Source of the DNA: an uncultured Ignavibacteriales bacterium
Lineage (GTDB): Bacteria; Bacteroidota; Ignavibacteria; Ignavibacteriales; Ignavibacteriaceae
DNA length: 64,000 nt
NCBI GenBank assembly: GCA_963834015.1
Contig: CAWIAG010000004.1
Coordinates: 1,749,926-1,813,925 of the forward strand
Direction of reading: 5' to 3'
The notes beneath the pieces are model-generated. The model worked only from the letters and a program-made list of their open reading frames with translations. It searched no databases and was not told where the DNA came from. A program made the translations under genes and the position numbers. Positions within the stretch are counted from its first letter, which is position 1; every line of letters starts with the position of its first letter. Positions 1-55,700 of the stretch are shown in pieces.

Positions 1-1157
1 GGGGCTCATGGGCTCCCGTGCTGGCGGCATACCTGCAGAATGAACTTGGATTCAGCGGGGTTCAGGTCGGTGTTATTTATAGTTTACTACCTCTGGCAAC
101 AATTATATCGCCTTTTATCGGCGGACAGATTGCCGACCGGTATTTTTCTTCGGAAAAAGTTATTTCTGCCCTGCAATTGTGCGGCGGCGTTTTACTTCTT
201 TTTATTTCCCGCATTACGGATTATTCAACTATGATGTGGCTGATGACGCTTTACTGTTTATTGTATGCTCCTACATTAGCCCTTACAAATTCAATAGCAT
301 TTATAAATCTGAAAGATTCCGAAAAAGATTTTGGAGTGATCAGGGTTTGGGGAACAATCGGATGGATAGCTGCCGGATGGGCTTTAACAGGCTGGAGGGT
401 TTGGTTCAAAACTCCTAATGCAGCCGGGTTCGGCGGCGACCTTTTATTTCTTGCGGGAATTTTTTCTGTAATAATGGGATTGACGTCATTCTCATTGCCG
501 CATACTCCTCCTAAAAAGGAAATTACAAGTCCGTGGGCTTTTGTTGAAGCTTTTAAAATGATGAGGAACAAAAACTTCCTGATCTTTATAATTATATCCT
601 TCGTTGTAGCAACGGAACTGATGTTTTATTACCAGCTTACTTCGCCGTTCTTAGAATCTGCCCGTATTGGGCTTTCCCCGCAAAGTGTGCCGGCAGTTAT
701 GACAATAGCCCAGATGGCGGAGATTTTTGTGATGGCTTTTCTTCTGCCGCGCTTTATTAAAAAATACGGAGTAAGAAACGTGCTCGTTATCGGCGTGCTT
801 GCATGGCCGGTAAGGTATATTATTTTTGCTATCGGAACTCCCGCCTGGCTTGTGATTGCTTCCCTGGCGCTTCACGGTTTCTGCTTCGTCTTTTTCTTTA
901 CGGCGGCATTTATATACGTCGATACAGTTGCACCGCCCGGTATCCGGCACTCTGCCCAGAGCTTAATAACTTTTGCGACTTATGGAATAGGAAATTATGC
1001 GGGCGCTTTTTTTGCAGGATGGATACAGGATTATTTTACTTCTGCCGGATCGGTAAATTGGACGGGCGTTTTTCTTGTGCCGTGTGCATTGACAATTTTG
1101 TGCGCATTGGCTTTTTTGTTTTTCTTTAAAGTTGATAAATCCGTAATTAAAGTTTAA
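1..1157 (+). CDS. MFS transporter (5' end probably truncated by window edge; frame open from nt 3, tool start is GTG at 18)
   Basis: 379-aa ORF with ~12 hydrophobic segments and MFS-like loops. The reading frame is open to the window start. A 34-bp gap to the next gene suggests an operon. Confidence 0.8.
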   Translation, partial: GSWAPVLAAYLQNELGFSGVQVGVIYSLLPLATIISPFIGGQIADRYFSSEKVISALQLCGGVLLLFISRITDYSTMMWLMTLYCLLYAPTLALTNSIAFINLKDSEKDFGVIRVWGTIGWIAAGWALTGWRVWFKTPNAAGFGGDLLFLAGIFSVIMGLTSFSLPHTPPKKEITSPWAFVEAFKMMRNKNFLIFIIISFVVATELMFYYQLTSPFLESARIGLSPQSVPAVMTIAQMAEIFVMAFLLPRFIKKYGVRNVLVIGVLAWPVRYIIFAIGTPAWLVIASLALHGFCFVFFFTAAFIYVDTVAPPGIRHSAQSLITFATYGIGNYAGAFFAGWIQDYFTSAGSVNWTGVFLVPCALTILCALAFLFFFKVDKSVIKV

Positions 1158-1191
1158 ATATTTTTTGTGGCTCGCTTAACAGGAAAGAATT

Positions 1192-2439
1192 ATGAATAAA
1201 AAAAGAATTGGCGTCGGGATTATCGGCGCAGGCTTCAATGCCAGGTTTCATATTAAATCATGGGTGTCTGTCAGGGATGCGGATATTTTAGGGATATATG
1301 ACAGGAACCCGGAAACTGCTTCCGCCGCTGCAACGCTTGCAAAAAACCTGCGGGTGGGCGAGGCAAAAGTTTTTAAGTCGATTACTGATATGGCCGCCGA
1401 TCCGGGTATTGATGCGCTTTGGATTTGTTCGCCTAATTTTACACGCATAGAAGTGATGGAAGAAATTACTAATGCGGTTTTAACAGGTAAAGCTGATCTT
1501 ACCGGTATCTGCTGCGAAAAGCCTTTGGGAAGAAATGCAGCGGAAGCAGGAAAGATGCTTGAGCTTGTTCAAAAAACGAAACTGCTGGACGGGTATCTTG
1601 AAAACCAGCTTTTTTCTCCCGCAATTATCCGCGGCAGGGAAATTATCTGGGCAAGAGGCGCACGGTTCGCAGGCCGTCCCTACCTGGCAAGAGCGGCTGA
1701 GGAACACAGCGGCCCGCACAAACCATGGTTCTGGGAGGGAGAATTGCAGGGCGGCGGAGTTCTGAATGATATGATGTGCCATTCTGTTGAGGTTGCCAGG
1801 TTTTTATTAACGGAACCCGGTAAACCAAGGAATTCAATTACCCCGGTTAGTGTTTCCGCCCATGCAGAATGTTTAAAATGGCAGAGGCCCGGGTATGCCG
1901 AAATCCTTGCAAAAAATAGTAACGGTACAACAGATTATATAAACCGTCCGGCAGAAGATTATGCGCATGCTCTTGTTGAGTATAAGGATGAGAACGGGAA
2001 AAAACTTATCGTCGAAGCCACAACCTCATGGGCGTTTGTGGGTGCAGGTTTACGGCTGAGTATGGAATTGCTCGGGCCCGAATACTCGATGGCTGTGAAT
2101 ACTTTGGATTCGGATCTTAAACTTTTCCTGAGCAGAAATATCAAAGCGGATGCGGGTGAAGATTTAATTGAAAAGCAGAATGCGGAAAGCGGACTTATGC
2201 CCGTTGTTAGCAATGAAGAGAATACTTACGGATACGATCTTGAAAACAGGCACATGGTAAAATCATTTATTGAGGGTGTAAGGCCAAGCGAAAACTTTAG
2301 CGACGGCTTTAATGTAACGCAGCTTCTGATGACGGCATATATGAGCGCCGAACAGGGTAAAACTATCCCGTTCCCTCATCCGGATCTCCAAACTTTTATC
2401 CCTCTTGTTGCCAAAGGTAAATGGAATCCCGGGAAATGA
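1192..2439 (+). CDS. Gfo/Idh/MocA family NAD(P)-dependent oxidoreductase (cytoplasmic)
   Basis: N-terminal Rossmann motif GVGIIGAGFNARFH. Length of 415 aa is typical of the family. No signal peptide. Confidence 0.85.
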   Translation: MNKKRIGVGIIGAGFNARFHIKSWVSVRDADILGIYDRNPETASAAATLAKNLRVGEAKVFKSITDMAADPGIDALWICSPNFTRIEVMEEITNAVLTGKADLTGICCEKPLGRNAAEAGKMLELVQKTKLLDGYLENQLFSPAIIRGREIIWARGARFAGRPYLARAAEEHSGPHKPWFWEGELQGGGVLNDMMCHSVEVARFLLTEPGKPRNSITPVSVSAHAECLKWQRPGYAEILAKNSNGTTDYINRPAEDYAHALVEYKDENGKKLIVEATTSWAFVGAGLRLSMELLGPEYSMAVNTLDSDLKLFLSRNIKADAGEDLIEKQNAESGLMPVVSNEENTYGYDLENRHMVKSFIEGVRPSENFSDGFNVTQLLMTAYMSAEQGKTIPFPHPDLQTFIPLVAKGKWNPGK

Positions 2440-2443
2440 ATAA

Positions 2444-3005
2444 TGCGAATTAACACGAATTAGGTTAATACGAATTTACACGAATTATCATTACGAATTT
2501 CCACGAATTATCATTACGAATTTCCACGAATTAGGACGAATTCACGCGAAGTATCAGTAGGTGTATATTAAATTAGAGCTTTCATAAAAAATGAAATACA
2601 TTCTTAAAAAGTCCCCTCTTGGGAGGGGTGCAGGGGTGGGTCGAAGCGATTATATTTATAAAACCTCTGCAATTATTTTTATTCGTATAATGAATATACT
2701 GTAATGTTAGTAGGTACCCATATAAGCAGAACAATTACAAGAAATAAAAACATTACAGGTACATAATTTATCGACATGTAGAGAAGGGGCATGCCCTCCC
2801 GATAAGAAATTGGGACAGGCTGTCTTTACGATGCAATGTGTAATGTTGGAAGGCTCCCATAAAGCAGAACTTTTATAAAATATTTAACACACTACAAACG
2901 AAGTTAATACAATCTAATGTGAATTTTGTTCTAAGTCCCAGCGGGACGAAATATTTATAGCATAACAAACCCCAACAAACCTTTTCCTGAATCCCGGAGG
3001 GATGA
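2444..3005. repeat. Composite block of short dispersed repeats. Module A (ACGAATT-type 23-bp sub-repeats) at 2444-2555; module C' at 2701-2733; module B (palindromic GTAGAGAAGGGGC...GGCTGTCTTTACGATG) at 2777-2833; module C at 2839-2876; module D at 2966-3005.
   Basis: Each module recurs elsewhere in the window, and the same modules recur in inverted orientation at 6264-6637. Confidence 0.65.
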
Positions 3006-3106
3006 CATAATAACGGATAAGTACCATGTCTACGCCTAATTATTCACAATGCCGCTTAATAAAATTCTTAATATCCGCGTAACTTAAATGAATTATTAAG
3101 TGTACA

Positions 3107-3304
3107 TTATTCAATCTTAATTTTCTTCTTAAAATCTTCTTCAGATATATTGGAATCTTGTTTCCTGTCTTCTATGATTTTAATACATTCATTGTCTTCA
3201 ATTATCTCAAGCATCTCTTTGTACACTTTATAATCAACAAGAACACTCTTAGGCTTGCCGCTTTTATTATAAAATATTTTCTCTCTGGTTTTTAACTCGA
3301 TCAT
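3107..3304 (-). CDS. Small Phd/YefM- or RelB-like antitoxin-like protein (orphan; no adjacent toxin ORF)
   Basis: 65 aa. The segment SGKPKSVLVDYKVYKEMLEIIED resembles the conserved 'RGKPVAVLISxEEYExLxE' core of Phd/YefM antitoxins. It sits just downstream of the tandem-repeat array. Confidence 0.4.
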   Translation of the reverse strand: MIELKTREKIFYNKSGKPKSVLVDYKVYKEMLEIIEDNECIKIIEDRKQDSNISEEDFKKKIKIE

Positions 3305-3423
3305 TTTATGTCTCCTGAACTATCGGAAAAAATAATTTATTTAACCTCAAAATCAAATTATATCAATGCTATAAGCATTATGATCATAACAATCCTGAAT
3401 AACTTAAAAATAATTCTGTGATT

Positions 3424-3556
3424 GAATTACAATGAATGACAACCGAATGACCATCGAATTACAACGAATGACCATCGAATTACAATGAATGACCATCGAA
3501 TGACAACGATTGACCATTGAATGACCATGATTAACCATCGAATGACCATGAATTAT
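3424..3556. repeat. Tandem array of ~21-bp units (consensus approx GAATGACCATCGAATTACAAC, 6-7 degenerate copies)
   Basis: Read directly: ...gaatgacaaccgaatgaccatcgaattacaacgaatgaccatcgaattacaatgaatgaccatcgaatgacaacgattgaccattgaatgaccatgattaaccatcgaatgaccatg... Confidence 0.75.
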
Positions 3557-3608
3557 GGGCTACGCTTCAGGCAATCAATTCCCCGCAATTTATTTAAAAA
3601 TAAACTAT

Positions 3609-5072
3609 TTAATACACCAGAGTCTGTATTGCGTGCGGCGGAATAGTTACTGCCGCTTCTTTTAATCCGGCGTACAGGCTATAATGTATCTCATTGCCGC
3701 TTTGATTCATTACTACCGTTGCCATCTTACCATTTGGATTTAAAAATGATGCAGTCAGCAGGGCGCTCCTGTTTGAGACGGCGCTTACTCTTCGGGCTCC
3801 CGGGCGTATGAATTTTGAGAAGTGGCCGATATAAAAATAAGATGGTGTGTAAATTAAATTACCGGTTTTTATGTCTGCATGGACAGGTGCAAAACAATAG
3901 TTGCCCACATGATTAGGACCGCCGTTTTCATCAAGAAGAATATTCCAATCCGTCCAGCCGCATGTCCCGTTATTAAGATCATTAATCATTGAGCGGCCGT
4001 AACGCTCTGCATTAGGCCAATAAAAATATTTGGAGGAATCAAATTCTTCTACACAGCCTTCGGTAAATAATATGTTCTTGCAGGGATAATTCTCCCTTAC
4101 GTGTGCAATGTTATCAAACAGTGGCTCGCTGCCCGTCCACGTTTCATACCAGTGGAAACCAAGTCCCCATGCGTATTTTGCGGCGGCGGAATCGGAATAA
4201 ATTACATCAGCCCAATGATTTGCAAAATCCCTGTTATGATCCCAGATTATAATTTTTTTATCCCCAAGGCCGTGATTTTCCATTGCCGGGCCTAAATAGT
4301 TTTTCAGGAAGTCTCTTTCTTCTTCAGCGGTGTAATTACATGATTCAAAACTCTGTACTGCCAATGGTTCATTCTGAATGGTAATTCCCCAAACGGGAAT
4401 ACCCTCCGCCGCATAGGCTTTAATAAATTTTGTAAAGTAATCAGCCCATGATTGGTAGTATTCCGGTAAAAGTTTGCCGCCTTTTAACATGCTTTTATTG
4501 TCCTTCATAAATGCAGGCGGGCTCCACGGGCTGGCGAAGATTGAAATTTCTCCCCCCGCTTTTTCTATTGCCTGTTTGATCAAAGGAATGCGGAATTGTT
4601 TATCATGCTCAATATTAAAGGTTTTCAGTTCTTTATCTTTCGCAGTAACGTAGGTATAGCTCTCGCTGCTGAAATCGCAGCTATTAATGTTTGTACGCAT
4701 CAGTGAATAGCCAATGCCGTTCTGTTTATCGTAATAAGCATTTAATAGTTCCTGCTGTTTATCCGTGGGTAATTTTGCAAAGACTTCCGCAGCAGCATCT
4801 GTAACTGCGCCTCCTATACCAAGAATTTCCTGGAACTGTTTCCCGGGATTTACAAATACGGCGGTTTCAGTTTCAAGAGGCGGGCGAGCTTGTGTAAAAT
4901 CTAAAACGGAAGTTTTGGTAAGCCGTAAGTTTGTACTGTCCGCAGTTGTATAAACAATTATGTTTTCCCATTCGGCAGAGAATTGCTGCTGTGCAAAGAG
5001 CTGCTGAATAATTGATGAACACAGGATCAGCAGGAAAAGGGCCGGGAGAAGGTGGTAGGGGTGTTTTAACAT
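3609..5072 (-). CDS. Glycoside hydrolase family 30 (glucosylceramidase/O-glycosyl hydrolase-like), secreted
   Basis: 487 aa with an N-terminal signal peptide. Contains the GH30-like acid/base segment ITIQNEP and a TIM-barrel plus beta-sandwich layout typical of GH30. Confidence 0.8.
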   Translation of the reverse strand: MLKHPYHLLPALFLLILCSSIIQQLFAQQQFSAEWENIIVYTTADSTNLRLTKTSVLDFTQARPPLETETAVFVNPGKQFQEILGIGGAVTDAAAEVFAKLPTDKQQELLNAYYDKQNGIGYSLMRTNINSCDFSSESYTYVTAKDKELKTFNIEHDKQFRIPLIKQAIEKAGGEISIFASPWSPPAFMKDNKSMLKGGKLLPEYYQSWADYFTKFIKAYAAEGIPVWGITIQNEPLAVQSFESCNYTAEEERDFLKNYLGPAMENHGLGDKKIIIWDHNRDFANHWADVIYSDSAAAKYAWGLGFHWYETWTGSEPLFDNIAHVRENYPCKNILFTEGCVEEFDSSKYFYWPNAERYGRSMINDLNNGTCGWTDWNILLDENGGPNHVGNYCFAPVHADIKTGNLIYTPSYFYIGHFSKFIRPGARRVSAVSNRSALLTASFLNPNGKMATVVMNQSGNEIHYSLYAGLKEAAVTIPPHAIQTLVY

Positions 5073-5103
5073 TGTTTAGCTTTCGTTATTGAATTAAATA
5101 ATA

Positions 5104-5196
5104 TGCGAACTAGAATTAATACGAATTTACAATAATACGAATTTCCACGAATTATCTTTACGAATTTTCACGAATTAGGACGAATTTACACGAAGT
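5104..5196. repeat. Module A repeat copy (ACGAATTT(C/A)CACGAATTA sub-repeats ending ...GGACGAATTTACACGAAGTAG)
   Basis: Near-identical to 2444-2555 in the same orientation. Confidence 0.65.
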
Positions 5197-5208
5197 AGAT
5201 TATGTTCG

Positions 5209-5244
5209 GTGTAGAAGACGGGGCATGCCCTGTCTTTACGGGAG
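5209..5244. repeat. Module B, minimal form: GTAGAAGACGGGGCATGCCCTGTCTTTACGGGAG (20-bp imperfect palindrome AGACGGGGCA/TGCCCTGTCT)
   Basis: This is the shortest member of the B family. Other copies carry 20-40 bp inserted at the GCATGC centre. Confidence 0.65.
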
Positions 5245-5318
5245 ATACGTGAAAAAATTAAAGATGATATAACAATAAAAAATTAGTATGTGATGCAGCA
5301 GGTTGTTAAAGGAAGATA

Positions 5319-5528
5319 CTATCGCCAATGTATATTAGGTTTCCTGTTTTTTTCAGCGCATTCTCTTAGGTACATATTAATTAAATTTTGATAAGAGATA
5401 TCGGTTTCTGAAGCTAATTTTTTAAAATATTCCACCGTGTCATTCTCTATACGAATTGATATTTGCTTCTTGAGTTTCTTTATATAAGGATTACTAGACG
5501 ATTTTGAAAAATCATATTCTTTCTTCAT
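5319..5528 (-). CDS. brnA: BrnA-type antitoxin (ribbon-helix-helix / DUF4415-like); tool ORF extends to 5630 but the start is likely the internal Met at 5528 (or 5543)
   Basis: The segment KKEYDFSKSSSNPYIKKLKKQISIRIENDTVEYFKKLASETDISYQNLINMYLREC matches the BrnA consensus. It lies immediately downstream of BrnT and overlaps it. Confidence 0.7.
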   Translation of the reverse strand: MKKEYDFSKSSSNPYIKKLKKQISIRIENDTVEYFKKLASETDISYQNLINMYLRECAEKNRKPNIHWR

Positions 5529-5529
5529 T

Positions 5530-5820
5530 TTATTTTGCCTCATCGTAATATTTACTTTCAGATTTTGTTGCTTTTCTTGCGGAAATAATCCGGATAATTT
5601 CATCATTCTCTTTATAATTATGCACCACAATAAGAAGATTTAAATTATTAGAAATACCTAAAATAATATATCGTTCTTCTTTGATTGAATGATCAGGATC
5701 AGATATAAGTCGTGCATTGCCATCAAAAAACACGGTCTTAGCTTCTTCAAAAGAAATTTTATGCTTTTTTATATTCGCAAGATTTTTATTTTGATTCCAT
5801 TGGAAACGAATATTATCCAT
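5530..5820 (-). CDS. brnT: BrnT-type toxin (DUF497 ribonuclease toxin)
   Basis: 96 aa: MDNIRFQWNQNKNLANIKKHKISFEEAKTVFFD...IIRIISARKATKSE, a DUF497/BrnT-like fold-family signature. Toxin-first gene order with a 1-4 nt overlap to brnA. Confidence 0.7.
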   Translation of the reverse strand: MDNIRFQWNQNKNLANIKKHKISFEEAKTVFFDGNARLISDPDHSIKEERYIILGISNNLNLLIVVHNYKENDEIIRIISARKATKSESKYYDEAK

Positions 5821-5884
5821 AATGATAATATAATGATATTATAATTATCTACAAAATTCTTATAAAAGGAAATTTATAGAATAT

Positions 5885-5947
5885 GAATTCGCGTTAATGC
5901 AAATTTACACGAATAAGGACGAACCTGCATGCCGGCAGGCAGGTTTG
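5885..5947. repeat. Module A-like fragment (GAATTCGCGTTAATGCAAATTTACACGAATAAGGACGAAC) fused to a palindrome AACCTGCATGCCGGCAGGCAGGTTT
   Basis: Read directly. Overlaps a spurious 67-aa ORF (5905..6108 -). Confidence 0.5.
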
Positions 5948-6263
5948 AGCAAAGGGAAGAGGAGTGCTTGTCCCAAAGTGCTGAAATGTTTGATGATGGA
6001 TAAAATGGCGTACAATGAGTGATTCATTTCAACAGCAATTCGATCCGCCGTTCTCCAGCCTCCGGTCTCCGTTCTGCTGTCTCCGGTCTCCTCTTTATTT
6101 ACAAACAATATTAAAAATAAATAAATAAATTACACTGCTAATTGCCCTGCGATTATTCAAATTTAAAAACTCTGGTAAAAAAATCAGGAGATTTTAAAAA
6201 TTAAAATATTTAAATTTGCACCCGTGTTATTTACATTAAAATATATGCTAACGATTTCTTGTC

Positions 6264-6637
6264 CATTCGTGAAAATTCGTCCTAATTCGTGAAAATTCGT
6301 ATTAATATAAATTCGTATTCCTTTTAAGGAAATTATATCTTTGACATTCTGTTTGACGTATTGAAATACATACGGTGAAGTGTCTTGAATAAATTTTTAT
6401 ATGGGAAATCTGTTTTATTTTTTGCGGCCTACCGATAATTTTACATCTTACATCGTAAAGACAGCCTGCCTATCCCACTTGCCCCGCAGAGTCGGTGGCC
6501 CCGTCTCTACAAAGTGATAAATTATGTACATGTAATGTTTATCATTATTTATAAAAGTTCTTATTTTATGGGAGCCTTCCAACATTATACTTAAGTCCTA
6601 TGTCACCCCGCCGGGGTTCAGGAGAAGGTTTGTTGGT
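6264..6637. repeat. Second composite repeat block, every module inverted relative to 2444-3005. A-inv at 6264-6318; B-inv at 6450-6510; C'-inv at 6525-6548; C-inv at 6551-6590; D-inv at 6604-6637.
   Basis: The reverse complement of each module matches the left-hand copy, e.g. RC(6551-6590) = tataatgttggaaggctcccataaaataagaacttttat versus 2839-2876. Module order differs between the two blocks (left reads A-C'-B-C-D; the right, on the minus strand, reads D-C-C'-B-A), so this is a mosaic of independent elements rather than one clean inverted repeat. Confidence 0.65.
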
Positions 6638-7357
6638 GAGATTTTTTTGCTATAAACATTTCACCCCTCCGGGGTTTGGATATCGTTAATTCAGGTTTGT
6701 GAAATAAGGAGGGAAATAATTATCAATGTTATTGCTAACATTACAATTTTAAGGTAGCTGAATAACGGCAGAGCCGTGAAATGCTGGTAGAATTAAAAGG
6801 AAAAGACAAACACAAGTTAGCATCGTAGATGCGGCATGGTGAATTTGATTACGAAACACCTGTCACCGGAATGCGGTTTAGGAAAGGTTTGATTAGGAAT
6901 TATTGCTACACCCATGCCGTCCAGATTGGACTTAGCGCAACGGATCCGGTTAATGAATCGCTGCATTTCGGAGTGAGTTCTCAGCCCTTTTTAGGCGAAA
7001 AAATTACCAGGATTTTATTAAATTTTAAATTTTAAAAAAACTCATGTTAGCTCCAATAGCATAAACTCTTGATTTTATTAACTTTAAATTTTTATTTTCC
7101 TTGAGCTAAGCTGGATTAAATGATTTGTTTTTAATAAGTTAAATGATTTAACACCTCTTGTTTTTTTTCGCTTTTTTAAAGGTTAAATCCTTTGTATTCA
7201 ATAACTTAATTGATTTTTTAGTGTCAATTTAGGCCCTTTTTATGATATCATTTTGGCATTTTTGGTGTTATTTCCCGTCATATTATGATATTTTTATCTG
7301 TATATATTATAAGGGTTTAGCAAACAGCATAAACCGGAAATTCAAAAAAATAATCCA

Positions 7358-8218
7358 ATGTTAATGAATCAAAATATTCAGGAAATAATCGGACAAAGAT
7401 ATTCATGCCGTTTTTACAACCATGAACCTATTCAGAAAGTGCATCAGCAGGAACTCAGAAAGTTCCTGGAGACTCTGCACACCGGCCCTTTGGGAACACA
7501 TGTTCGTCTTGAACTTGCCGCCGCTGAACCGGAAGAGAGACAATCTTTAAAAGGACTAGGCACATACGGCGTTATCAGGAATCCTGCAGGTTTTATTATA
7601 GGTACGGTAGAACAGGCGCCAGGGGACCTTGAAGATTACGGATACGTTCTTGAGCATGCAATTCTTACAGCTACCGGTATTGGTTTAGGTACCTGCTGGC
7701 TTGGCGGCCCTATTACAAAAAGCAGTTTTGCAAAAAAAATTTCTTTACGGGATAATGAAACAATGCCTGCCGTAGCTGCCGCAGGATATATCGAAGAGAG
7801 AAAAGGAAAAGACGGTGAGATTATTAACTACAGAAGACCGGCCCGCTTGCCTTCAGAACAGTTATTCTTCGCTGATGCATTCGGCAGTGCGTTAATTATG
7901 GAAACTGCAGGCGAATATTCGCAGCCTCTTGAAATGGTCCGTATAGCCCCGTCAGCTTCCAACAAACAGCCGTGGAGAATTGTCAGGATAAATAATGCGT
8001 GGCATTTTTTTCTTCGGCGGACAAGAGGGTACGGCAAAGGGACAGTGTTATTCAGAATTCTCAGGCTCGCCGATCTCCAGCGTGTTGATATGGGTATTGC
8101 CATGTGCCATTTTGAACTCACCGCCCGTGAGCTTGGATTAAACGGCGTTTGGGTTATCGATGATCCAAAAATTCAAATGCCCGGAGGAACGGAATACACG
8201 GCAACGTGGAAAGTTTAA
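7358..8218 (+). CDS. Nitroreductase-family flavoprotein (enlarged, 286 aa)
   Basis: N-terminal IIGQRYSCRFYNHEPI and C-terminal SASNKQPWRIVRI match the two halves of the nitroreductase fold. Confidence 0.75.
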   Translation: MLMNQNIQEIIGQRYSCRFYNHEPIQKVHQQELRKFLETLHTGPLGTHVRLELAAAEPEERQSLKGLGTYGVIRNPAGFIIGTVEQAPGDLEDYGYVLEHAILTATGIGLGTCWLGGPITKSSFAKKISLRDNETMPAVAAAGYIEERKGKDGEIINYRRPARLPSEQLFFADAFGSALIMETAGEYSQPLEMVRIAPSASNKQPWRIVRINNAWHFFLRRTRGYGKGTVLFRILRLADLQRVDMGIAMCHFELTARELGLNGVWVIDDPKIQMPGGTEYTATWKV

Positions 8219-8220
8219 GT

Positions 8221-8260
8221 GCGGATTCACACGATTTGTTAATACGAATTTGCATTAATC
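8221..8260. repeat. Module A-like short copy (GCGGATTCACACGATTTGTTAATACGAATTTGCATTAATC)
   Basis: Sequence similarity to the ACGAATT-type repeats, located directly after the nitroreductase stop. Confidence 0.45.
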
Positions 8261-8336
8261 TTTTCCAGGTATTATTTTACGGCTACAAAAGTAGCCATAT
8301 GGTTACAATAGTATCCATAAACAAAACTGATGAAAA

Positions 8337-8945
8337 ATGATTGTTAACAAATTATTAGAAAAATTATTTAGTGCGCCAAGTAATATTTCTGTAATCAGGG
8401 TGCTGAATGAGAGAGTTACGGGAATAACAGGCAGAGAGACTGCAAGGCTTACCAATCTTACACATCGTTCGGCTCTAAAAGCCCTTACTAATCTGGAAGA
8501 GCTTGGCGTTGTATCTCGCATAACAGGCGGTAGAGATCATATATTTACTCTTAACAGGCAGAAATATATTTCTAAAGAGATCATCTACCCGATTTTTGAA
8601 GCTGAAAAAAAATTTAATACAGCTATCAGATCTTCTTTAAAAAAACAATTATCAAAGTTAACTGATAGCATTATTGTATATGGTAGCGTTGCCCGTAAGG
8701 AAGAAACAATATCAAGTGATTATGATGTCTGCATTGTTTATAACGGGCATTTAAATGATATTGAAAATATTGTCTTAAAACTAAGGGACCGGCTTCATGA
8801 CCAATATTCAATTCAACTTGCTCCGATTTATATCAGAACCGCCGAATTTAAAAAACGTGCACGTAAAAAACTACCCCCGGTGAATGATATAGTTAATGAA
8901 GGAGTGGTAATAAGCGGTAAATCAATTCATAAGCTTCTGCAATGA
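8337..8945 (+). CDS. Nucleotidyltransferase (MNT/MntA-like antitoxin-type) with N-terminal winged-HTH extension
   Basis: The C-terminal half (IIVYGSVARKEETISSDYDVCIVY) carries a minimal-nucleotidyltransferase GS...D.D motif. The N-terminal ~90 aa (RVLNERVTGITGRETARLTNLTHRSALKALTNLEELGVV) looks like a wHTH. The stop overlaps the next gene's start (ATGA at 8942). Confidence 0.75.
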   Translation: MIVNKLLEKLFSAPSNISVIRVLNERVTGITGRETARLTNLTHRSALKALTNLEELGVVSRITGGRDHIFTLNRQKYISKEIIYPIFEAEKKFNTAIRSSLKKQLSKLTDSIIVYGSVARKEETISSDYDVCIVYNGHLNDIENIVLKLRDRLHDQYSIQLAPIYIRTAEFKKRARKKLPPVNDIVNEGVVISGKSIHKLLQ

Positions 8946-9343
8946 AACAACCCGTAAAAAAGATTGATGTAAATAAATATTTGGATTTTATAAAAGTTTC
9001 CGATGACTTTTCAAACGGAAGTGAATCTGCATATACATTCGAATACTATAATGCCGCCGGAGTTTTAGTAATTCATGCTGCAATTGCGCTTGCTGATGCT
9101 GTTACAATCAAACTATCCGGCAAAAAATGCAGCGGTGAAAGTCATTATGATATTATAGACTTATTAAGACTTGTCACTCCACCATCGCAGAATAAAAATA
9201 AATCATTAGATCAGTTCAAAAAATTGATTGATCATAAAAATAAAGTTTCATACTATGGTGATATCTATTTTAAGAAAGATGTAGATAAATTATTAAATCA
9301 TTTCAAAAGGTTTAAATCCTGGGCCGGTATGTTGCTAATGTAA
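8942..9343 (+). CDS. HEPN-domain protein (HepT-like partner of the upstream nucleotidyltransferase)
   Basis: 133-aa all-helical small protein, translationally coupled to the MNT gene. An Rx4-6H-like region, LIDHKNKVSYY, sits near the C-terminus, but Arg is replaced by His. Confidence 0.6.
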   Translation: MKQPVKKIDVNKYLDFIKVSDDFSNGSESAYTFEYYNAAGVLVIHAAIALADAVTIKLSGKKCSGESHYDIIDLLRLVTPPSQNKNKSLDQFKKLIDHKNKVSYYGDIYFKKDVDKLLNHFKRFKSWAGMLLM

Positions 9344-9444
9344 AATACTATCTTTAATTGCATTAAGTTCTAAAAGAGATATTGACTTGATTTTACTATA
9401 ATTTAAACCGGCAGGTTTGTAAGAAAGGCATGAGCTTATTTTAA

Positions 9445-9495
9445 GCGTAAAGACATCCTGTTTGTCCCGCTTGTCCCGCCAAGGCGGTGGTCCGA
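9445..9495. repeat. Module B copy (inverted): GCGTAAAGACATCCTG...GGCGGTGGTCCG, with the insert containing CTTATCGGGA
   Basis: The RC reads ...CGGACCACCGCC...CAGGATGTCTTTACGC. An A-like GAATCACGAATTTTT sits immediately 3' (9519-9535). Confidence 0.5.
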
Positions 9496-9530
9496 TTCCT
9501 TATCGGGAGGGTTAGGCGAATCACGAATTT

Positions 9531-9566
9531 TTTTCCCCTCTCTTTATTAGGAGAGAGGGTGATTTT
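9531..9566. terminator. Probable bidirectional intrinsic terminator between the convergent HEPN (+) and MBL (-) genes
   Basis: TTTT-CCCTCTC-tttattagga-GAGAGGG-TGATTTT: a 7-bp G/C-containing stem flanked by T-runs on the + strand. Confidence 0.45.
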
Positions 9567-9598
9567 GTATCGTCATGAAACAATAAATGTGTGAATGA

Positions 9599-10267
9599 TT
9601 AATTCAAAAGCTCCATGGGAAATGGTTTGCCATGTCCAGGGTACACCATATTTATTTTTAGCTCGTGAAGTTTTTCTAAACTTTTTGTCAGTTCATCATG
9701 ATCCTGAATTATATTTGCCGATTCCGGTTTTTTGTTATTAACAAGTGTATCTCCTGAAAACAAATCGCCCGCGCCGGTTAATATGCCGATTGAGCCTTTT
9801 GTGTGTCCGGGTAAATGTATAACTTTTGCATTGAACCCATATTCCTGCAGGCTCTGGCCGTCATGCAGATAGATATCCGGTGTAAACTGATCCGTATTTA
9901 TTTTTTTCTTCTTTAATTTTCTTAAAAAAATAATAATTGCAAACATGATTTTTCTTGAAAGGTGTTTTACTTTTCTTTTTCCGGGAGAGCCTGATTGTAT
10001 GATTGAATAATCATCTTTGTGCATTGCTATAACGGCATTATATTTTTCCTTAAGTTTTTTACAATTGCCGGAATGATCCCTGTCCCCGTGTGTTAAAATT
10101 ACCAGTTTTAATTTGCCGGGAAGGCAGCCGTTGGAAATTAATTCTTTTTCCAATTTTCCCCATTGCATGGGTAATCCGGTATCTATTAAAATAAAGCCCG
10201 TGCCCAGCTTAAAAAGATAAGCGTTTACAAAGGAGAGTGGAATGGTTTTTATATTTTCGTCAATCAT
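9599..10267 (-). CDS. MBL-fold metallo-hydrolase
   Basis: H-x-H-x-D-H motif in LTHGDRDHSG, later His/Asp ligands (HLPGHT), length 222 aa. Confidence 0.85.
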   Translation of the reverse strand: MIDENIKTIPLSFVNAYLFKLGTGFILIDTGLPMQWGKLEKELISNGCLPGKLKLVILTHGDRDHSGNCKKLKEKYNAVIAMHKDDYSIIQSGSPGKRKVKHLSRKIMFAIIIFLRKLKKKKINTDQFTPDIYLHDGQSLQEYGFNAKVIHLPGHTKGSIGILTGAGDLFSGDTLVNNKKPESANIIQDHDELTKSLEKLHELKINMVYPGHGKPFPMELLN

Positions 10268-10290
10268 ATTTTTATCCTCGGCTTTTATGA

Positions 10291-13050
10291 TTAATTATTT
10301 ATAACGAAGTTATATTTGCCGGATCCGATGTGCAATATAATTTTTCCGCCGGCTGACTGCACCATCTGTATTTCTTTTATCTGCTCTACAGGTTTGCCGC
10401 TTTCAAAGATATTGTCTTTTGAACCTGCCGGCATGAAAACATCCGCCGTGGTGTTGGGCGGAACCTGGATGTTAAGCTGTGTTGAATTATTATCAACTGT
10501 CCAGCCGGATGAAATCATCCCGTATATGGAGTGATATTCTGCTTTGGCATATTTTAACTGTTTTGTTATGTGCGGATCTATAATAATGTTTTTGTAACCG
10601 GGGCTGCCGCTGTCTATATCTATTCCGGCAACACAACTGTAAAGCCATTTGCCGACAGCTCCGTATGCGTAATGATTAAATGAATTCATGCCGTCACTCT
10701 GAAAAGACCCGTTTCTTTTTATTCCGTCCCAGCGTTCCCAAATTGTGGTGGCGCCTTTTGTTACGGGATAAAGCCATGAAGGATATTCTTTTCTGAAGAG
10801 AAGCATATATGCTAAATCCGTGTAACCGTTATCTGTAAGTACCCGGCTGATCCTTGAAGCGCCGAGGAACCCTGTTGTAAGATGCCCGAAATTATTAACA
10901 TCATCCGCCAGGCGTTTAGCCGCCGGTGCAATCATGTCCGCAGGAATAATATTGAAATCCAGAGCCAGTGCATAAGCGGTCTGCGTGTTGGATGCAAGTC
11001 TTCCGTTCTGAGTTATAAATTCTTTTTGAAAGGCTTCTTTAATATTTTTCATTAACGCGGTGAATTCTTGTGCATCCTGTTCATTGCCGAGTATTGAAGC
11101 AATTTTCTGCATAAGGTCTGCGGCATGATAAAAGTATGCAGTGCCTATCAGGTCCTTATCGGTTGTTGCTCCCGGATAGTCTGACCTGTCGGTTGCAAAC
11201 GCAAGCCAATCGCCGAAGCCGACATTTTTATTCCATAAGTAGGAATCGCCGGCAATTTTCTTTATGTAATTAAGCCAGCCTTTCATACAACTGTATTGGG
11301 TTTGAAGTATCCGGGTATCGCCGTAGTTTTGATAGACCGTCCATGGTACGATAATGGCAGCATCGGCCCAGCCTGCTGCACCTCCGCCGTCATTGCCCAG
11401 GATATTTGGAATTACGTGCGGTATCCTGCCGTCTTCAAGCTGATCCGCAGTAAAGTCTTTCATCCACTTGGTGTAGAAAGATGCGGCATCCATATTAAAA
11501 CATGCGGTTGGTGAGAAGACTTCTGCGTCTCCCGTCCATCCTAATCTTTCATCTCGCTGGGGGCAGTCGGTTGGCACATCTACAAAGTTGCCTCTTAATC
11601 CCCACTGGATATTTTTTTGAAGCCGGTTAATTAATGAATCGGAGCACTCAAAATTGCCGGATGGGGTCATATCCGAATGAATCACCATACCGGTTATATC
11701 ATTTAGAGAAATATCGCCGGGATAATTTGTTACAGCCACGTACCTGAAACCCTGGAATGTAAAATGCGGTTGAAATACTTCTGCACCGCTGCCTTTAAAA
11801 GTATATTCAACATTTTGTTTTGCTTTGCGGAGATTTGCCGTATAAATGTTTCCTTCTTTATTCAGTACCTCTGCATGCCGCAGGGTTATTTTATCGCCGG
11901 CATTGCCTTTTAATTTAAATTGAATCCAGCCTACCATATTTTGCCCCATGTCGAAAACCAAATCGCCGTTGGGTGTCTTAAATTCTTTAGCGGGCTTTAT
12001 TGTTTGTGTTATTCTAACGGCAGGCCCTTCGGTTGCTGTAAGAATATCTTTATTGTAATCTTTAACAGTTGTGCCGCTCCAGCCGCTGTCGTCATAGCCA
12101 GGCTTATCCCAGCCGTCTTTTTCCAGCCGTGCATCATAAGTTTCACCGTCATAAATTTCCGACATTAATATCGGGCCGGTGGATGATTTCCATTCCGGGC
12201 CGGATTTAATTATTTCCGATGTCCCGTCCGTATAAGTGATATTGATTTGAAGAAGGAGGCCGGTTTTATCTCCAAAATTATTTGCCTTATAATCCCATGT
12301 TAAAGGTCCTTTGTACCAGCCGTCGCCGAGGATTACGCCGAATGCGTTTTTACCTGACTGGATATTCCGCGTTACATCGTAAACCTGGTATTGAAGGCGT
12401 TTGTTATAGCTGGTCCAGCCGGGAGTGAAAAACCTGTTGCCGATTTTTTCACCGTTGATATGAAACTCATAAAGGCCATGGCATGTTACATAGGCTCTTG
12501 CAGATTTAACGGATTTATGGATTTCAATTTCATCCCTGAGCATAGGGCAGGGGCTGTAATTATTATCGTTTAGTTTCAACTGAGGCTCAATCCATTCAGC
12601 CTGCCAGTCAGATGATTGTAGCAGACCCATTTCCCAGAATGAAACTTCGCTCCATCCGGATTCGTCACCTTCGTTATCCAGGATTTTAACCTGCCAGAAT
12701 ACACGCTGCGCGGATTGCAAAGCGGCGCCGTTATATACAATCTGGTTGGACTGGCCGGAAATAATTTTACCGCTGTCCCATAAAAGATTTTTACCGCTTA
12801 ATAAATCTTTTTCAGACAGTGATGCGCGTACCATGTAAGCGCTCTGCATAATGTTCCTTTTAGAGGAAACAATTTCCCAGCTAAGCCGGGGCTGTTTATC
12901 GCCGATGCCGACGGGATTGAAGATGTAATCCGTCCTGAGATCGGTCACTTTTAATAAGTCAGATGCCATAACAGGATGAAAAAATAGTATAATTTGTAAT
13001 AAAACAAATAATAAAAAGCTGCGGCAGGTATTCCGCGGGAGTAGTCCTGT
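10291..13050 (-). CDS. Glycoside hydrolase family 78 alpha-L-rhamnosidase, secreted (tool ORF to 13161; likely start at the Met preceding signal peptide MTGLLPRNTCRSFLLFVLLQIILFFHPVMA)
   Basis: The GH78 hallmark block GLYEFHINGEKIGNRFFTPGWTSYNKRLQYQVYDVT, plus a C-terminal six-hairpin-like region. About 920 aa. Confidence 0.85.
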   Translation of the reverse strand, partial: TGLLPRNTCRSFLLFVLLQIILFFHPVMASDLLKVTDLRTDYIFNPVGIGDKQPRLSWEIVSSKRNIMQSAYMVRASLSEKDLLSGKNLLWDSGKIISGQSNQIVYNGAALQSAQRVFWQVKILDNEGDESGWSEVSFWEMGLLQSSDWQAEWIEPQLKLNDNNYSPCPMLRDEIEIHKSVKSARAYVTCHGLYEFHINGEKIGNRFFTPGWTSYNKRLQYQVYDVTRNIQSGKNAFGVILGDGWYKGPLTWDYKANNFGDKTGLLLQINITYTDGTSEIIKSGPEWKSSTGPILMSEIYDGETYDARLEKDGWDKPGYDDSGWSGTTVKDYNKDILTATEGPAVRITQTIKPAKEFKTPNGDLVFDMGQNMVGWIQFKLKGNAGDKITLRHAEVLNKEGNIYTANLRKAKQNVEYTFKGSGAEVFQPHFTFQGFRYVAVTNYPGDISLNDITGMVIHSDMTPSGNFECSDSLINRLQKNIQWGLRGNFVDVPTDCPQRDERLGWTGDAEVFSPTACFNMDAASFYTKWMKDFTADQLEDGRIPHVIPNILGNDGGGAAGWADAAIIVPWTVYQNYGDTRILQTQYSCMKGWLNYIKKIAGDSYLWNKNVGFGDWLAFATDRSDYPGATTDKDLIGTAYFYHAADLMQKIASILGNEQDAQEFTALMKNIKEAFQKEFITQNGRLASNTQTAYALALDFNIIPADMIAPAAKRLADDVNNFGHLTTGFLGASRISRVLTDNGYTDLAYMLLFRKEYPSWLYPVTKGATTIWERWDGIKRNGSFQSDGMNSFNHYAYGAVGKWLYSCVAGIDIDSGSPGYKNIIIDPHITKQLKYAKAEYHSIYGMISSGWTVDNNSTQLNIQVPPNTTADVFMPAGSKDNIFESGKPVEQIKEIQMVQSAGGKIILHIGSGKYNFVINN

Positions 13051-13452
13051 CATCTGTATCATGTTGTTGTTCCATTCGTATTTTAAAAATAATTGTTTGC
13101 ATAGAAATACAGTTAAGGTAATATAATTTTTTACGTTCCAGATAATGTTGTAAAACTTCATATTAAAAATAAGCAGTAATTTATTAATTATATTGGCTTC
13201 AGTCGCATGGGCGGAACTATGAAATATCTCTCTGCCAATAATAAGGAATTTTTATTAGCTTTGTATGAGGCTTTGACCAGTTAAGGCAGGTAAAAAAAAA
13301 TAGATTACTATAATACGGTTAGCTTTATTGCATTTAAGCCTGATAAGAGTGAAACATTAAATTAGCGAAGCCTGCCCGTCTGCAGGCAGATGGTTTTCGA
13401 CTTACAAGATAATAATATTAATAATAATTGAATTTAATCCTGGAGATTAAAT

Positions 13453-52769: not shown

Positions 52770-55700
52770 ATGATTCGATCTATAGTACTGAGTTTTTTGT
52801 TTTGCAGTTTACTTCTTGCTTCATCCGGGGTTAAAGAGAGGCGTTATGCACCCGGCGAAATTATTATTAAATATGAAAAGGTAGGGCAAAGAGCAAGGGG
52901 GTCAGAGATAATAACCCAGCATAAAAGCTTTGTTGATAATTTAGAACTAAACATGAAGGGTTTAAAAATAAAAAGTTACTCTCCTGTTTTCAAAAGTTTA
53001 ATTAGGGAAATGACTGACAAAAATCTTACCGAGCAGGAGGTAGTTGAGAATAAAGCTGTTACCAAAAAAAATAAAACATCATCATCTTTTATTAAAAAAA
53101 TAACTTTCTCAAATATCCTTTTACTCAAAATTGATTCAGTAGCAGATATCTTAGAGTTAGCTTCAACTCTAAATAATAACCGAGATTTATTGGCCTCAGA
53201 GGGAATGAGAATTGTTTACGCCGAACCGAATTATTTAAAAAAGACAAGTGTAAACCCGAATGATCCTTTGTATCCTCTGCAATGGTCCTATCGAATAACT
53301 GATGTAGCTAATGCCTGGGATACTACGGAGGGAAGTCCTAATATTAAGATTGCAATTGTTGATACAGGAGTTGATCCAACACATCCGGATTTAATTGCAA
53401 ATCTTATTCAGGGCTATAATTTTGTTAATATCGATACAGACTACTACAAACAAGATTCTAATATAACCTTACTTCCGGGAGAAATTTATACGCAACCCGG
53501 ACCTAATTGTACCGACTATAATGGTCATGGGACTCACTGTGCAGGTATTGCTGCGGCAGCCGGAAATAATGGAATCGGAATTATCGGTGTAGCTCCAAAT
53601 TGTAAGATTATGCCTGTTAGAGCTGGTTTTAGTCTTATGGTTGATGGACAGGAGGAAGGTGTTCTTGAAACTACTTCTATCGTGGAAGGAATTAATTATG
53701 CAGTGGATAATGGTGCAAATGTAATTAGTATGAGTTTTGGTGGCGATAGTTCGAACCTTGAAGAAGAAGCTATTCAGAATGCTTATTACAACAATGTAGT
53801 CTTAGTTGCTGCTGCAGGGAACAACAGTTCATCTGAAAAGTTTTATCCGGCTGGATACAGTGAAGTATTAGCAATAACATCAGTAGATTCAACCAGGTCC
53901 GCTTCTTCATTTACTGAATATGGATATTGGACGTCTGTTGCAGCACCTGGAGAAAATATAATTTCAACTGTACCGTTAACTGGAGGTATCCTTACCGATC
54001 CATCCGGTTATAAGGTATTATCCGGAACTTCAATGGCGTCTCCTTTCGTTGCCGGTGAAGTTGCATTAATTTTATCGCACAATCCTTCTTTATCCAATAA
54101 TCTAATATATCAAATAGTCAGAACTGCAGTTAGTTCGTACTATGCGAGTAATAATTATATAGGTACCGGAATCGTTGATGTAGATAAAGCTTTTATAGGA
54201 ACCGGAGCTTGTATAGCAAAAATTACTGTTCCGTATAATATAAACAATCTGTATATATCCAAGGGAAATATAAGTATTTCCGGAAGAGCATCAGGGTTAT
54301 TATTCCGTAATTATTATTTGCAATACTCAGATTATCAAAATTCAACTGCGATCTGGCAGTCCGCAGGACAAATTTATACTACTCAGGTTGATAGCGGTTA
54401 CCTTGGAACTGTTAGTATAGCACAACCGGGGGTTTATTATATAAGGCTGGTAGTTACAAGCACTAACAATATACAGTATACAGATATAATCGGACCTGTT
54501 ACAGTTGATAACAGATTGAAATCCAATTGGCCGGTTTCAACAGGATCTCCCATCGGTTCTACGCCGGTACTTTCGGATATCTATGGGGACGGGAATGTTG
54601 AGGTAATATTTACAAGTTCAAACGGTGAAATCTATGTTGTAGATCAGAATGGCAATAATAAACCTGGCTGGCCTGTAACATTACCTAATTCCAGTTCTAA
54701 ATCCCAAGTTGGTTATACAAGCCCGGCAGTTGGGGATCTGGACAATGACGGTAAAAAAGAAATAGCAGTGAGAGACGGTCAGTTTATTTATGTATATAAA
54801 AATGATGGTACCATGAGGAATGGATGGCCGGTATCTTTAGGTACAAATATATTTTCGGGAAATGCAATAGTAGGCTCACCCACTATTGCTGATATTAATA
54901 ATGATGGTTATAAAGAAATACTTGTAACATCTCTTAATGGTAAAATATTTGCATTCGATCGTAATGGTTACATTATTTCCGGCTGGCCGGTATCAGTACC
55001 GATTAATTCTGTATGGGCTACTTTGTATTCAACTCCAGTAGTATCAGATATAAAAGGTGATGGTAACGTTGAAATAATAATCCAATGCATTGATGAGTCT
55101 TCCGCTAATTCTATTGGCTACCTATATGTATTTGATAATTTTGGAAATGTTCTTCCCGGCTGGCCGCAAACAATAGGAGGGGGATCATGGACTTCCCCTA
55201 TAACTGCAGATATAAACAATGATGGGCAAAATGAAATAATTGCATCTTCATTTTTGCCGTCCGGTTCTTCATCAGGTTCAATAGGTCTTTACGTTTTTAA
55301 TCCGGCCGGCAGCTTACTAAAAGGATTCCCTGTGCAGTTGAATGATGTGTCCTTTGGATATTATAATATTAAAGCAGGGCTGTCAGCCGGAGATATAAAT
55401 AATGACGGTTATAAAGAAATTATCGTTGCAAGCAGCCAATTGAATTCACTATGGGCGGTTGACAGAAATGGTAAAGTACTCTGGAATTCACAACCAAGCG
55501 AGCCATGGGAGTATAATTTTGCGTCGGTTCCAATTATTGCGGATATCAATAATGACGGCAAACCTGAAATATTAGTTTCTAAATACAATAATACAAATCA
55601 AACCGGCAAAATTATTGTTGTTAATAACACCGGGCAAATAATGGAAAGTCTTTCTTGTGTTCTTCCGGAACAGATATGGGCTACTCCTTCTATTGGTGAT

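Follow-up and report, generated by a model that had tools for sequence, protein, structure and literature searches.

Probable REP/BIME-like mosaics of short non-coding repeats around a GH30 gene and toxin–antitoxin genes of an uncultured Ignavibacteriota-like bacterium

The 64-kb stretch of DNA analysed here, which we call the window, is a contig of a metagenome-assembled genome (MAG) of an uncultured Ignavibacteriota-like bacterium, and it is 100% identical to the NCBI MAG contig JBAUQR010000077.1 (GCA_049580805.1). Near its beginning, a glycoside hydrolase gene of family GH30 and several toxin–antitoxin (TA) genes lie between two mosaics of short non-coding repeats, which share their modules in opposite orientation. 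The explanation that we favour, and consider probable, is that in the two mosaics at least five short non-coding repeat elements, independent of one another, form nested clusters comparable to repetitive extragenic palindromic (REP) sequences and to bacterial interspersed mosaic elements (BIMEs). These elements are named here A, B, C-x, D and E, to which a conserved stretch, Y, and a GC hairpin at 5921-5945 are to be added.

The window opens with genes for a major facilitator superfamily (MFS) nucleoside symporter (18-1157, + strand) and a GFO/IDH/MocA oxidoreductase (1192-2439, +), whose product shares 75% identity with proteins from MAGs of Ignavibacteriaceae and Melioribacteraceae. Past the left mosaic follow, all on the - strand, an orphan relB-like antitoxin gene of 65 aa (3107-3304), which scores 27.2 bits against a cut-off of 27 for Pfam PF18506, the GH30 gene (3609-5072), assigned by Pfam, and the TA genes brnA (5319-5528) and brnT (5530-5820). 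On the far side of the right mosaic lie a nitroreductase gene (7358-8218, +) and an MNT/HEPN gene pair (8337-9343, +), the latter within an MNT-HEPN TA cassette (8250-9408, +) whose left border abuts TTAATACGAAT. When the TA proteins were submitted to PADLOC, MNT alone matched candidate systems.

Module A consists of tandem arrays of the octamer CACGAATT. The corresponding pattern, ACGAATTNNNACGAAT, matches the window 13 times, where 0.22 matches would be expected, and all of them fall within 2445-6300. The first array, A_left (2444-2553, +), begins 5 nt past the stop codon of the GFO/IDH/MocA gene and holds nine units with a CGAAT core, of the CACGAATT type, in a higher-order period of 23 nt. 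The second, A_mid (5111-5197, +), stands directly upstream of the GH30 start codon and is 94% identical to A_left (2492-2553) over 62 nt. The third, A_right (6264-6320, -), is inverted with respect to both: its positions 6266-6301 are 97% complementary to 5159-5194 of A_mid over 36 nt, and 6266-6307 match 2509-2550 of A_left, inverted, at 86% over 42 nt. A_mid and A_right are the (+) and (-) arms of an A(+)/A(-) pair. A variant tandem array with a period of 21 (CGAATGAC/CGAATTAC; 3423-3555, +) is related to A and varies strongly in length between lineages, and a remnant at 5889-5918 is a further copy of the A unit.

In the left mosaic, A_left is followed by a terminator-like GC hairpin with a T-run on the - strand (2613-2628, -), and then by a C'-x-B block (about 2699-2843, +) made up of a C copy (2699-2745), the spacer x (2746-2777) and hairpin B (2778-2836), which is headed by GTAG and has a small hairpin nested in it. 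This block is collinear with the reverse complement of 6590-6441, that is, with the inverted B-x-C block of the right mosaic (6441-6590, -). A second, solo copy of C (2837-2885, +) is the one whose sequence the initial annotation of this DNA had quoted. Next come the hairpins E (GTCCCAGCGGGAC + GAAATATTTATAGCA; 2930-2968, +; right copy 6642-6680) and D (CCTGAA-TCCCGGAGGGA-TGACATA; 2970-3012, +; right copy 6599-6636), both of them tiny GC-stem hairpins with A/T-rich tails, while C-x is an AT-rich element. In the right mosaic, D and E share a 156-nt stretch (6590-6745, -) with an imperfect 11-nt direct repeat around it (CCAACATTATA / CTAACATTACA; 6579-6589 and 6735-6745). It is followed by Y (6735-6878), a conserved non-coding stretch of 144 nt; a search of window positions 1-10000 against Rfam at E<=1 gave no relevant match, for Y or otherwise. 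Between the mosaics, the short hairpin B_mid (5208-5240) lies close to brnA, and a perfect-stem hairpin, AACCTGCATGCCGGCAGGCAGGTT (5921-5945; z-score -2.9), and a heptamer tandem repeat (CCGGTCT/CCGTTCT; 6048-6091, +) lie between brnT and A_right. Hairpin AACCTGCATGCCGGCAGGCAGGTT is 23/24 identical to a locus of a Planctomycetota MAG (L106:1808-1831), which makes it a second short hairpin common across phyla, beside E (see below).

The initial annotation had described four modules, A to D, on both sides of the GH30 and TA genes, every one of them inverted, and this is borne out with matches far beyond chance. In B, GGCTGTCTTTACGATG recurs without a mismatch at 2818-2833 (+) and 6451-6466 (-); C is exact at 2839-2870, with an inverted copy at 6548-6587 (92.5% over 40 nt); and D at 2972-3009 matches 6599-6636 at 89% over 38 nt, so that B, C and D altogether recur inverted on the right side with 78-100% identity over 18-52 nt. 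Read along the + strand, both sides carry the blocks in the order A, CxB, E/D, each block being flipped in place; the two sides are not mirror images, in keeping with the difference in module order already noted at the outset. The delimitation of the modules needs some revision: A to D are real, but C, x and B form one collinear block of ~145 nt, and what had been called D is the two hairpins D and E. Nor do the modules merely bracket about 3.2 kb, as was first thought, since additional copies of A and B lie inside the segment.

Seven assemblies span both mosaics, namely the window's own contig, the 99.9%-identical ENA contig L001, L123-L126 and L145. They belong to three assembly lineages (identical, 99.9% and ~97%) and are fully collinear; the inversion or deletion of the enclosed segment that the initial annotation had envisaged was seen in none of them. 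The second strain lineage (L123-L126 and L145, from JGI, ENA and NCBI assemblies) is 97.15% identical to the window and collinear with it over positions 1-12000, and its differences are concentrated in the arrays, the variant array being largely different. In L123, A_left lacks exactly one 23-nt unit (2479-2501), and in a third lineage, L217, A_left and A_mid have still fewer units: the A arrays behave as variable-number tandem repeats that differ between strains in steps of 23 nt. Three short contigs of the same species (L127, L128 and L131) break inside the left mosaic, as is expected of repeats or hairpins.

L216, from a related species in the same metagenome, offers an empty-site comparison (GH30 proteins 87% identical, DNA ~85%). 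L216 has the backbone of the window, consisting of the start of relB, the variant array, GH30, A(+) in the same place, the heptamer repeats, A(-), D, Y (86% identical to the window's Y) and the nitroreductase gene. Missing from it are window positions 5195-5913, which hold brnTA, as well as the B-x-C block (6441-6590) and the E hairpin, and its spacer from A(+) to A(-) measures 295 nt instead of 1,067 nt. GH30, syntenic with the nitroreductase gene in both species, and the A(+)/A(-) pair are therefore shown to be old backbone, and the 3.2 kb is not a unit but is composed of this conserved backbone and a separate 719-bp brnTA insertion. At other places L216 has one more B (92% identical) and one more D.

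Two more contigs, L151 and L153, were found by scanning the metagenome with the 20-nt core of x. In L151, Y (82% identical to that of the window) is joined directly to C-x-B (82-85% identity), without the 156-nt E-D stretch, which in the comparison with L151 is flanked in the window by the repeats TGTAATGTTAG / TATAATGTTGG; a second, solo B lies 5 kb away. L153 has x plus a short B. B is thus represented by three copies at the locus, two in L151 and one in L216. Since single modules are missing from L216 and L151, and since copies of B, D, x/C and Y are present at unrelated loci of related metagenome contigs, the modules are independently gained or lost elements, each of which has come or gone on its own between related genomes. 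For the same reason the modules are not unique to this locus; their uniqueness was what the initial annotation had named as fatal to its reading of the mosaics as a hotspot of accumulated elements resembling miniature inverted-repeat transposable elements (MITEs). The part of that reading that stands is that several small elements have piled up here; in the strict sense they are no MITEs, for neither terminal inverted repeats (TIRs) nor a parent insertion sequence (IS) were found. The comparison with related strains that it had proposed gave collinear assemblies on the one hand and, on the other, a related species devoid of brnTA, B-x-C and E.

The brnTA insertion (5195-5913, -) comprises B_mid, brnA, brnT, the promoter/operator of brnT and the A-unit copy. 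An exact 12-nt direct repeat, AATTTACACGAA (5183-5194 and 5902-5913), flanks it and occurs as a single copy in L216. The insertion abuts the end of the A(+) array, and the 12-nt repeat is a duplicate of an A unit, which would fit integration by recombination at such a unit. Direct repeats of 12 nt (brnTA) and of 11 nt, imperfect (E-D), are candidates for the target duplications that the initial annotation had proposed to look for, but each of them also belongs to an adjoining repeat module. The target duplications known for common IS families are shorter than 11-12 nt. The brnT gene of the sister lineage (L123, L125 and L217; L123:14317-14613) has a premature stop (FEEA*AVFF), while its brnA is intact, so that the toxin is decaying there. 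The other TA cassette, MNT-HEPN, is 90.8% identical to its L216 counterpart, against 83-87% for the flanking genes, and in L216 it is found on the other side of a lactamase_B gene, followed by a D-type hairpin; TA cassettes therefore move within the neighbourhood. The two cassettes also have a sequence in common, ATTTGCATTAA, with exactly two copies in the 64 kb (5894-5904, -, and 8248-8258, +), each at a cassette border, ~80 nt before the cassette's first gene (brnT and MNT, respectively). A copy with one mismatch (9356-9366, +) lies just past the stop codon of HEPN, and ATTTGCATTAA may be a shared cassette-end or promoter signature.

REP families are described as GTAG-tagged stem-loops that form clusters, insert in other palindromes and differ between strains, and mosaic intergenic regions have been reported for them, with those of Neisseria cited as well (PMC3733652, PMC3116915). 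B is similar in being a short extragenic stem-loop that starts with GTAG and has a 12-bp stem in its short copy, in occurring both as singletons and in clusters that differ between related genomes, and in lying inside other palindromes. B_mid forms a stem of 12 pairs closed by a 4-nt loop (z -2.5), within the limits of REP stem-loops (stem of 5-13 bp, loop of 2-20 nt), and GTAGAGA / GTAGAAGA heads all three window copies of B, even though the GTA of this head can pair with a TAC at the other end, unlike in the definition of PMC3733652. B thus has the structural hallmarks of GTAG-tagged REPs and is a candidate member of that class; the search for a REP-associated tyrosine transposase (RAYT) covered the 64 kb and its flanks. 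B differs from REPINs in that it was not seen as inverted doublets.

Several points weigh against this interpretation. No RAYT (Y1/HUH transposase) is encoded in the 64-kb window or its ±10-kb flanks, and the long copies of B, taken whole, fold weakly (z about -1). Beyond the locus, B, D, x and Y have few copies, all of them in related metagenome contigs, modules A to D were found nowhere else in the window, its other ~57 kb being free of module copies, and CGAAT arrays occur at this locus only among ~150 kb of other Ignavibacteriota sequence. From their sequences, A_left and A_mid look like local paralogues, and the differences in presence or absence could in principle reflect deletions in the relatives rather than insertions here.

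Module A leads beyond this locus. A one-genome-per-species scan with ACGAATTTNCACGAATTA yielded at least 120 loci. We define here as a foldback an intergenic element with at least two tandem CACGAATT units per arm, the (+) arm preceding the (-) arm. Clear foldbacks, with 2-5 tandem units, a spacer and an inverted array, are found at 60 of the at least 120 listed loci, and arrays of at least three units at a further 37. Polarity is marked among the listed loci: spacers between adjacent (+)(-) arrays measure 0-160 nt in 66/68 cases, the two longer ones being of 414 nt (L026) and of 1,067 nt (the window's own pair), while the 10 adjacent (-)(+) pairs are at least 599 nt apart in nine cases. The hosts belong, among the matches listed, to at least 15 phyla, with many Flavobacterium isolates and other Bacteroidota, Chloroflexota, Planctomycetota, Acidobacteriota, Cloacimonadota, Clostridia, Nitrospirota, KSB1, Verrucomicrobiota and others, and the G+C content of the loci ranges from 29 to 65%. 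Foldbacks are intergenic (2/66 overlap an ORF, or open reading frame, of at least 100 aa) and lie in 47/59 cases between co-directional genes.

Within one genome the whole element is conserved, including the outer palindrome and the loop, and between phyla the octamer arrays alone are common. Between the arms, units are 94% complementary and spacers 53%, which places the conservation on the octamer and not on perfect pairing. An all-vs-all BLAST clustering of the neighbours revealed no recurrent protein family around the 120 foldback loci, no Y1 transposase turned up among 150 flanking ORFs scanned with Pfam, and 18 foldback loci gave no Rfam match at the gathering threshold. The A array sequences were not found in the literature, where searches on repeats in general gave only REP/REPIN papers, and the paper on GTAG/CGTC REPs contains no CGAAT motif. 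In viral contigs the A pattern has 24 matches, against 14 and 24 for two shuffled-word controls, so that raw match counts are uninformative there; a foldback structure was present in 5/24 of the A matches and in none of those of the controls. A role as intrinsic terminators was considered and rejected, as the T-run is 5' of the hairpin and an A-run follows it, on both strands.

The larger loops of foldbacks often hold other palindromic elements, and some foldbacks lie inside longer palindromes. Module E of the window is 28/29 identical to the loop hairpins of a Flavobacterium saccharophilum foldback (L107). The notion that E-type hairpins are ubiquitous found no support: a generic regular expression for them matched L107 alone over 0.9 Mb of diverse loci, and the E hairpin motif had 0 matches in viral contigs. 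The loops of L007, L012, L013, L089, L113 and L058 hold palindromes of different tandem words, of the CACAGATT type in Flavobacterium and of the CACAGAG type in a Planctomycetota MAG, with a 35-bp perfect hairpin in L058, and such word-repeat foldbacks may form a broader class. The pair in the window, A(+) at 5120-5196 and A(-) at 6264-6317, has the polarity and build of the family, but it is atypical in its number of units (7 and 5 instead of the usual 2-4) and in its 1,067-nt "loop", which holds brnTA; A_left has no foldback partner. Taken one step further, these observations would make the CACGAATT foldbacks an undescribed class common to many phyla, in which the octamer would be the site of a protein that is either conserved or transferred widely, and the loops and edges would be landing pads where other small palindromes, and cassettes such as brnTA, integrate through recombination at a unit, with an attC-like function but no integron. 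We put this forward as a tentative and rather unlikely proposal.

The role of the octamer also bears on a narrower alternative, in which the A arrays would be protein-binding arrays and the other modules bystanders. Ribbon-helix-helix (RHH) antitoxins, partition-type proteins and response regulators, any of which could be the binding protein, typically bind short direct repeats one helical turn apart. The octamer period of 9-11 nt would suit them, as would the conservation focused on the octamer, its occurrence in many phyla, the RHH-type antitoxin genes (relB-like and brnA) that the arrays adjoin in the window, and the position of A_mid, which in the window as in L216 precedes the GH30 start by 40-125 nt. 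We nevertheless regard this alternative as improbable, given that no protein family recurs beside the arrays in 120 loci, that unit number varies freely between strains, and that orthologous Flavobacterium copies decay by CG-to-TG/CA changes. Moreover, in brnT homologues elsewhere the start codon is immediately preceded by another conserved repeat, ATCATTATAATATCATTATA, and no CACGAATT/CGAAT arrays stand beside these genes.

The confinement of all window copies to 4.3 kb, the similar divergence of the modules (78-97%) and the clear paralogy of A_left and A_mid would also be expected if the locus had arisen by one local inverted segmental duplication that was later scrambled by small inversions and indels, with no need for module mobility. 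There is only a slim chance that this is what happened: B, D, x/C and Y turn up at unrelated loci as well (L151, L153 and L216), the blocks, each flipped in place, would have needed at least three separate inversions, and the indels follow module boundaries, two of them with flanking direct repeats.

The relatives of brnTA raise the question of a decayed integron cassette array, similar to the clusters of attC sites lacking an integrase (CALIN), in which relB, brnTA and MNT-HEPN would be cassettes and the mosaics attC remnants. In other Ignavibacteriota (L140-L144), brnT homologues with 78-82% aa identity are flanked by attC-like sites (GTTAGGGGC / GCCCCTAAC), and in L141 (GCA_019638015.1; 3760-6652) an integron integrase (TIGR02249, 425 bits) is encoded 1.2 kb away from the brnTA homologue. 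The L141 genome has at least two copies of the brnTA homologue with an identical upstream attC. In the window, an R''-like TTTAAC follows the brnA stop codon, and TA cassettes are relocated or absent in L216. On the other hand, a palindrome search, made with no dedicated attC model, found no RYYYAAC...GTTRRRY palindrome in 2400-3700 or 5000-7400, the window lacks intI, B, C-x, D and E are also found at a distance from any cassette (L151 and L216), and GH30 is syntenic backbone, all of which makes an integron origin of the mosaics very unlikely. The likeness to integrons is that small, promoter-carrying TA cassettes move between intergenic sites, that the brnTA insertion lies between short direct repeats, as would a circle integrated by site-specific recombination, and that brnTA relatives elsewhere are true integron cassettes; besides the missing attC structure and intI, the difference is that the junction repeat is an A unit and not a GTTRRRY core site.

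Hardly credible, finally, is a composite mobile element or an invertible or excisable switch with the mosaics as terminal inverted repeats, whose recombination would flip or delete the GH30 and TA genes, for although the inverted A arrays (36 nt at 97%, 42 nt at 86%), the direct A arrays (62 nt at 94%) and the contigs broken in the left mosaic could speak for it, Pfam scans of ORFs of at least 90 aa detected no transposase, integrase, Y1, invertase, recombinase or intI gene in the 64-kb window, the module order is unmirrored, the seven collinear assemblies come from different samples and three lineages, and L216 keeps GH30 and both A arrays in place while devoid of brnTA and B-x-C. The 3.2-kb segment is thus neither a transposon nor an invertible switch, and the initial view that it is no simple IS was right.

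The REP/BIME-like interpretation can also be set against the other known repeat systems. In the intergenic BIMEs of Escherichia coli, palindromic units that alternate regularly in orientation are interspersed with other short motifs. The locus shares with them, and with the Neisseria mosaics, the combination of palindromic units with other short conserved motifs in variable order, and differs in its sequence families, in the lack of a regular alternation of unit orientation and in the TA cassettes embedded in it. With MITEs such as Correia/NEMIS, ERIC and RUP it has in common non-coding elements of 50-300 bp, their presence/absence polymorphism and two insertions with direct repeats. Inspection of the sequences at the ends of C-x-B, the 156-nt E-D stretch and the 719-bp brnTA insert revealed no TIRs, and no parent IS was found, so that "MITE" is a loose label only. 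The CACGAATT foldbacks are similar to REPINs in having two conserved inverted arms around a variable spacer and in being extragenic, but their arms are tandem octamers and not palindromes themselves, and the octamer is common across phyla, while REP sequences are lineage-specific. Cyanobacterial short tandemly repeated repetitive (STRR) sequences are intergenic heptamer arrays, and the eukaryotic Foldback elements have inverted arms of tandem short repeats. Small dispersed repeats (SDR), mentioned in PMC3116915, complete this group, which resembles the present locus in its intergenic tandem arrays, its very small nested elements and its inverted arms of tandem repeats, and differs in hosts and sequences. 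No STRR, SDR or eukaryotic Foldback element is known to share its unit across phyla.

If the mosaics are REP/BIME-like clusters, the hairpin elements would have spread as selfish, non-autonomous DNA moved in trans, B most likely by a Y1/HUH transposase of the RAYT kind, and would land preferentially in or beside existing palindromes. The A arrays would change by replication slippage, and a TA cassette might enter as a circular or linear donor that recombines at an A unit (Campbell-type) and leaves a direct repeat behind. With elements set beside or inside one another, the two sides come to share modules without being mirror images.

The hairpin clusters also affect gene prediction. Spurious ORFs at 2873-3027 (-) cross the E and D hairpins (CYKYFVPLGL; YYVIPPGFRKRF; AINISSRWD), and a phmmer search with the 37-aa pseudo-ORF over D/E against 1.84 billion proteins had a single relevant match, the public predicted protein P0362. 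This protein consists of three similar units of this kind, and gene callers elsewhere therefore do translate such hairpin clusters.

The remaining genes of the window mostly concern carbohydrate utilisation, sensors and secreted proteases. The GH78 rhamnosidase at 10291-13161 is split into two genes (419 and 482 aa) in the ENA contig (L001:2011-4782) and is a single 892-aa gene in the NCBI contig (L002:2104-4782), owing to a frameshift or an assembly difference. A DUF1670/HTH gene pair (57460-59105) sits between very large subtilase/FG-GAP proteins (52770-57404 and 59625-63053). Upstream of window position 1 (L001:15891-18312), DUF1828, AbiEii and a partner gene lie between the MFS gene and DUF5131; this insert is present in the window's strain and absent from the 97%-identical strain L123. 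Farther upstream, Mrr, GMT-wHTH, HNH and a type I restriction HsdR are encoded, and together they resemble a defence island.

At the level of the locus the finding is a fairly ordinary one, the Ignavibacteriota counterpart, as far as our reading of it is right, of REP/BIME mosaics, built up in long intergenic stretches of a variable neighbourhood rich in TA genes. Comparisons with empty sites show how such a mosaic grows by nested, module-by-module insertion, and how TA cassettes settle at its edges. For annotation it is useful to know that such stretches interrupt assemblies and give rise to spurious ORFs. What is unexplained, and potentially new, is the foldback family, for which Flavobacterium offers a culturable host; if a common protein or mechanism underlies it, this would add something new and very widespread to the biology of bacterial genomes.

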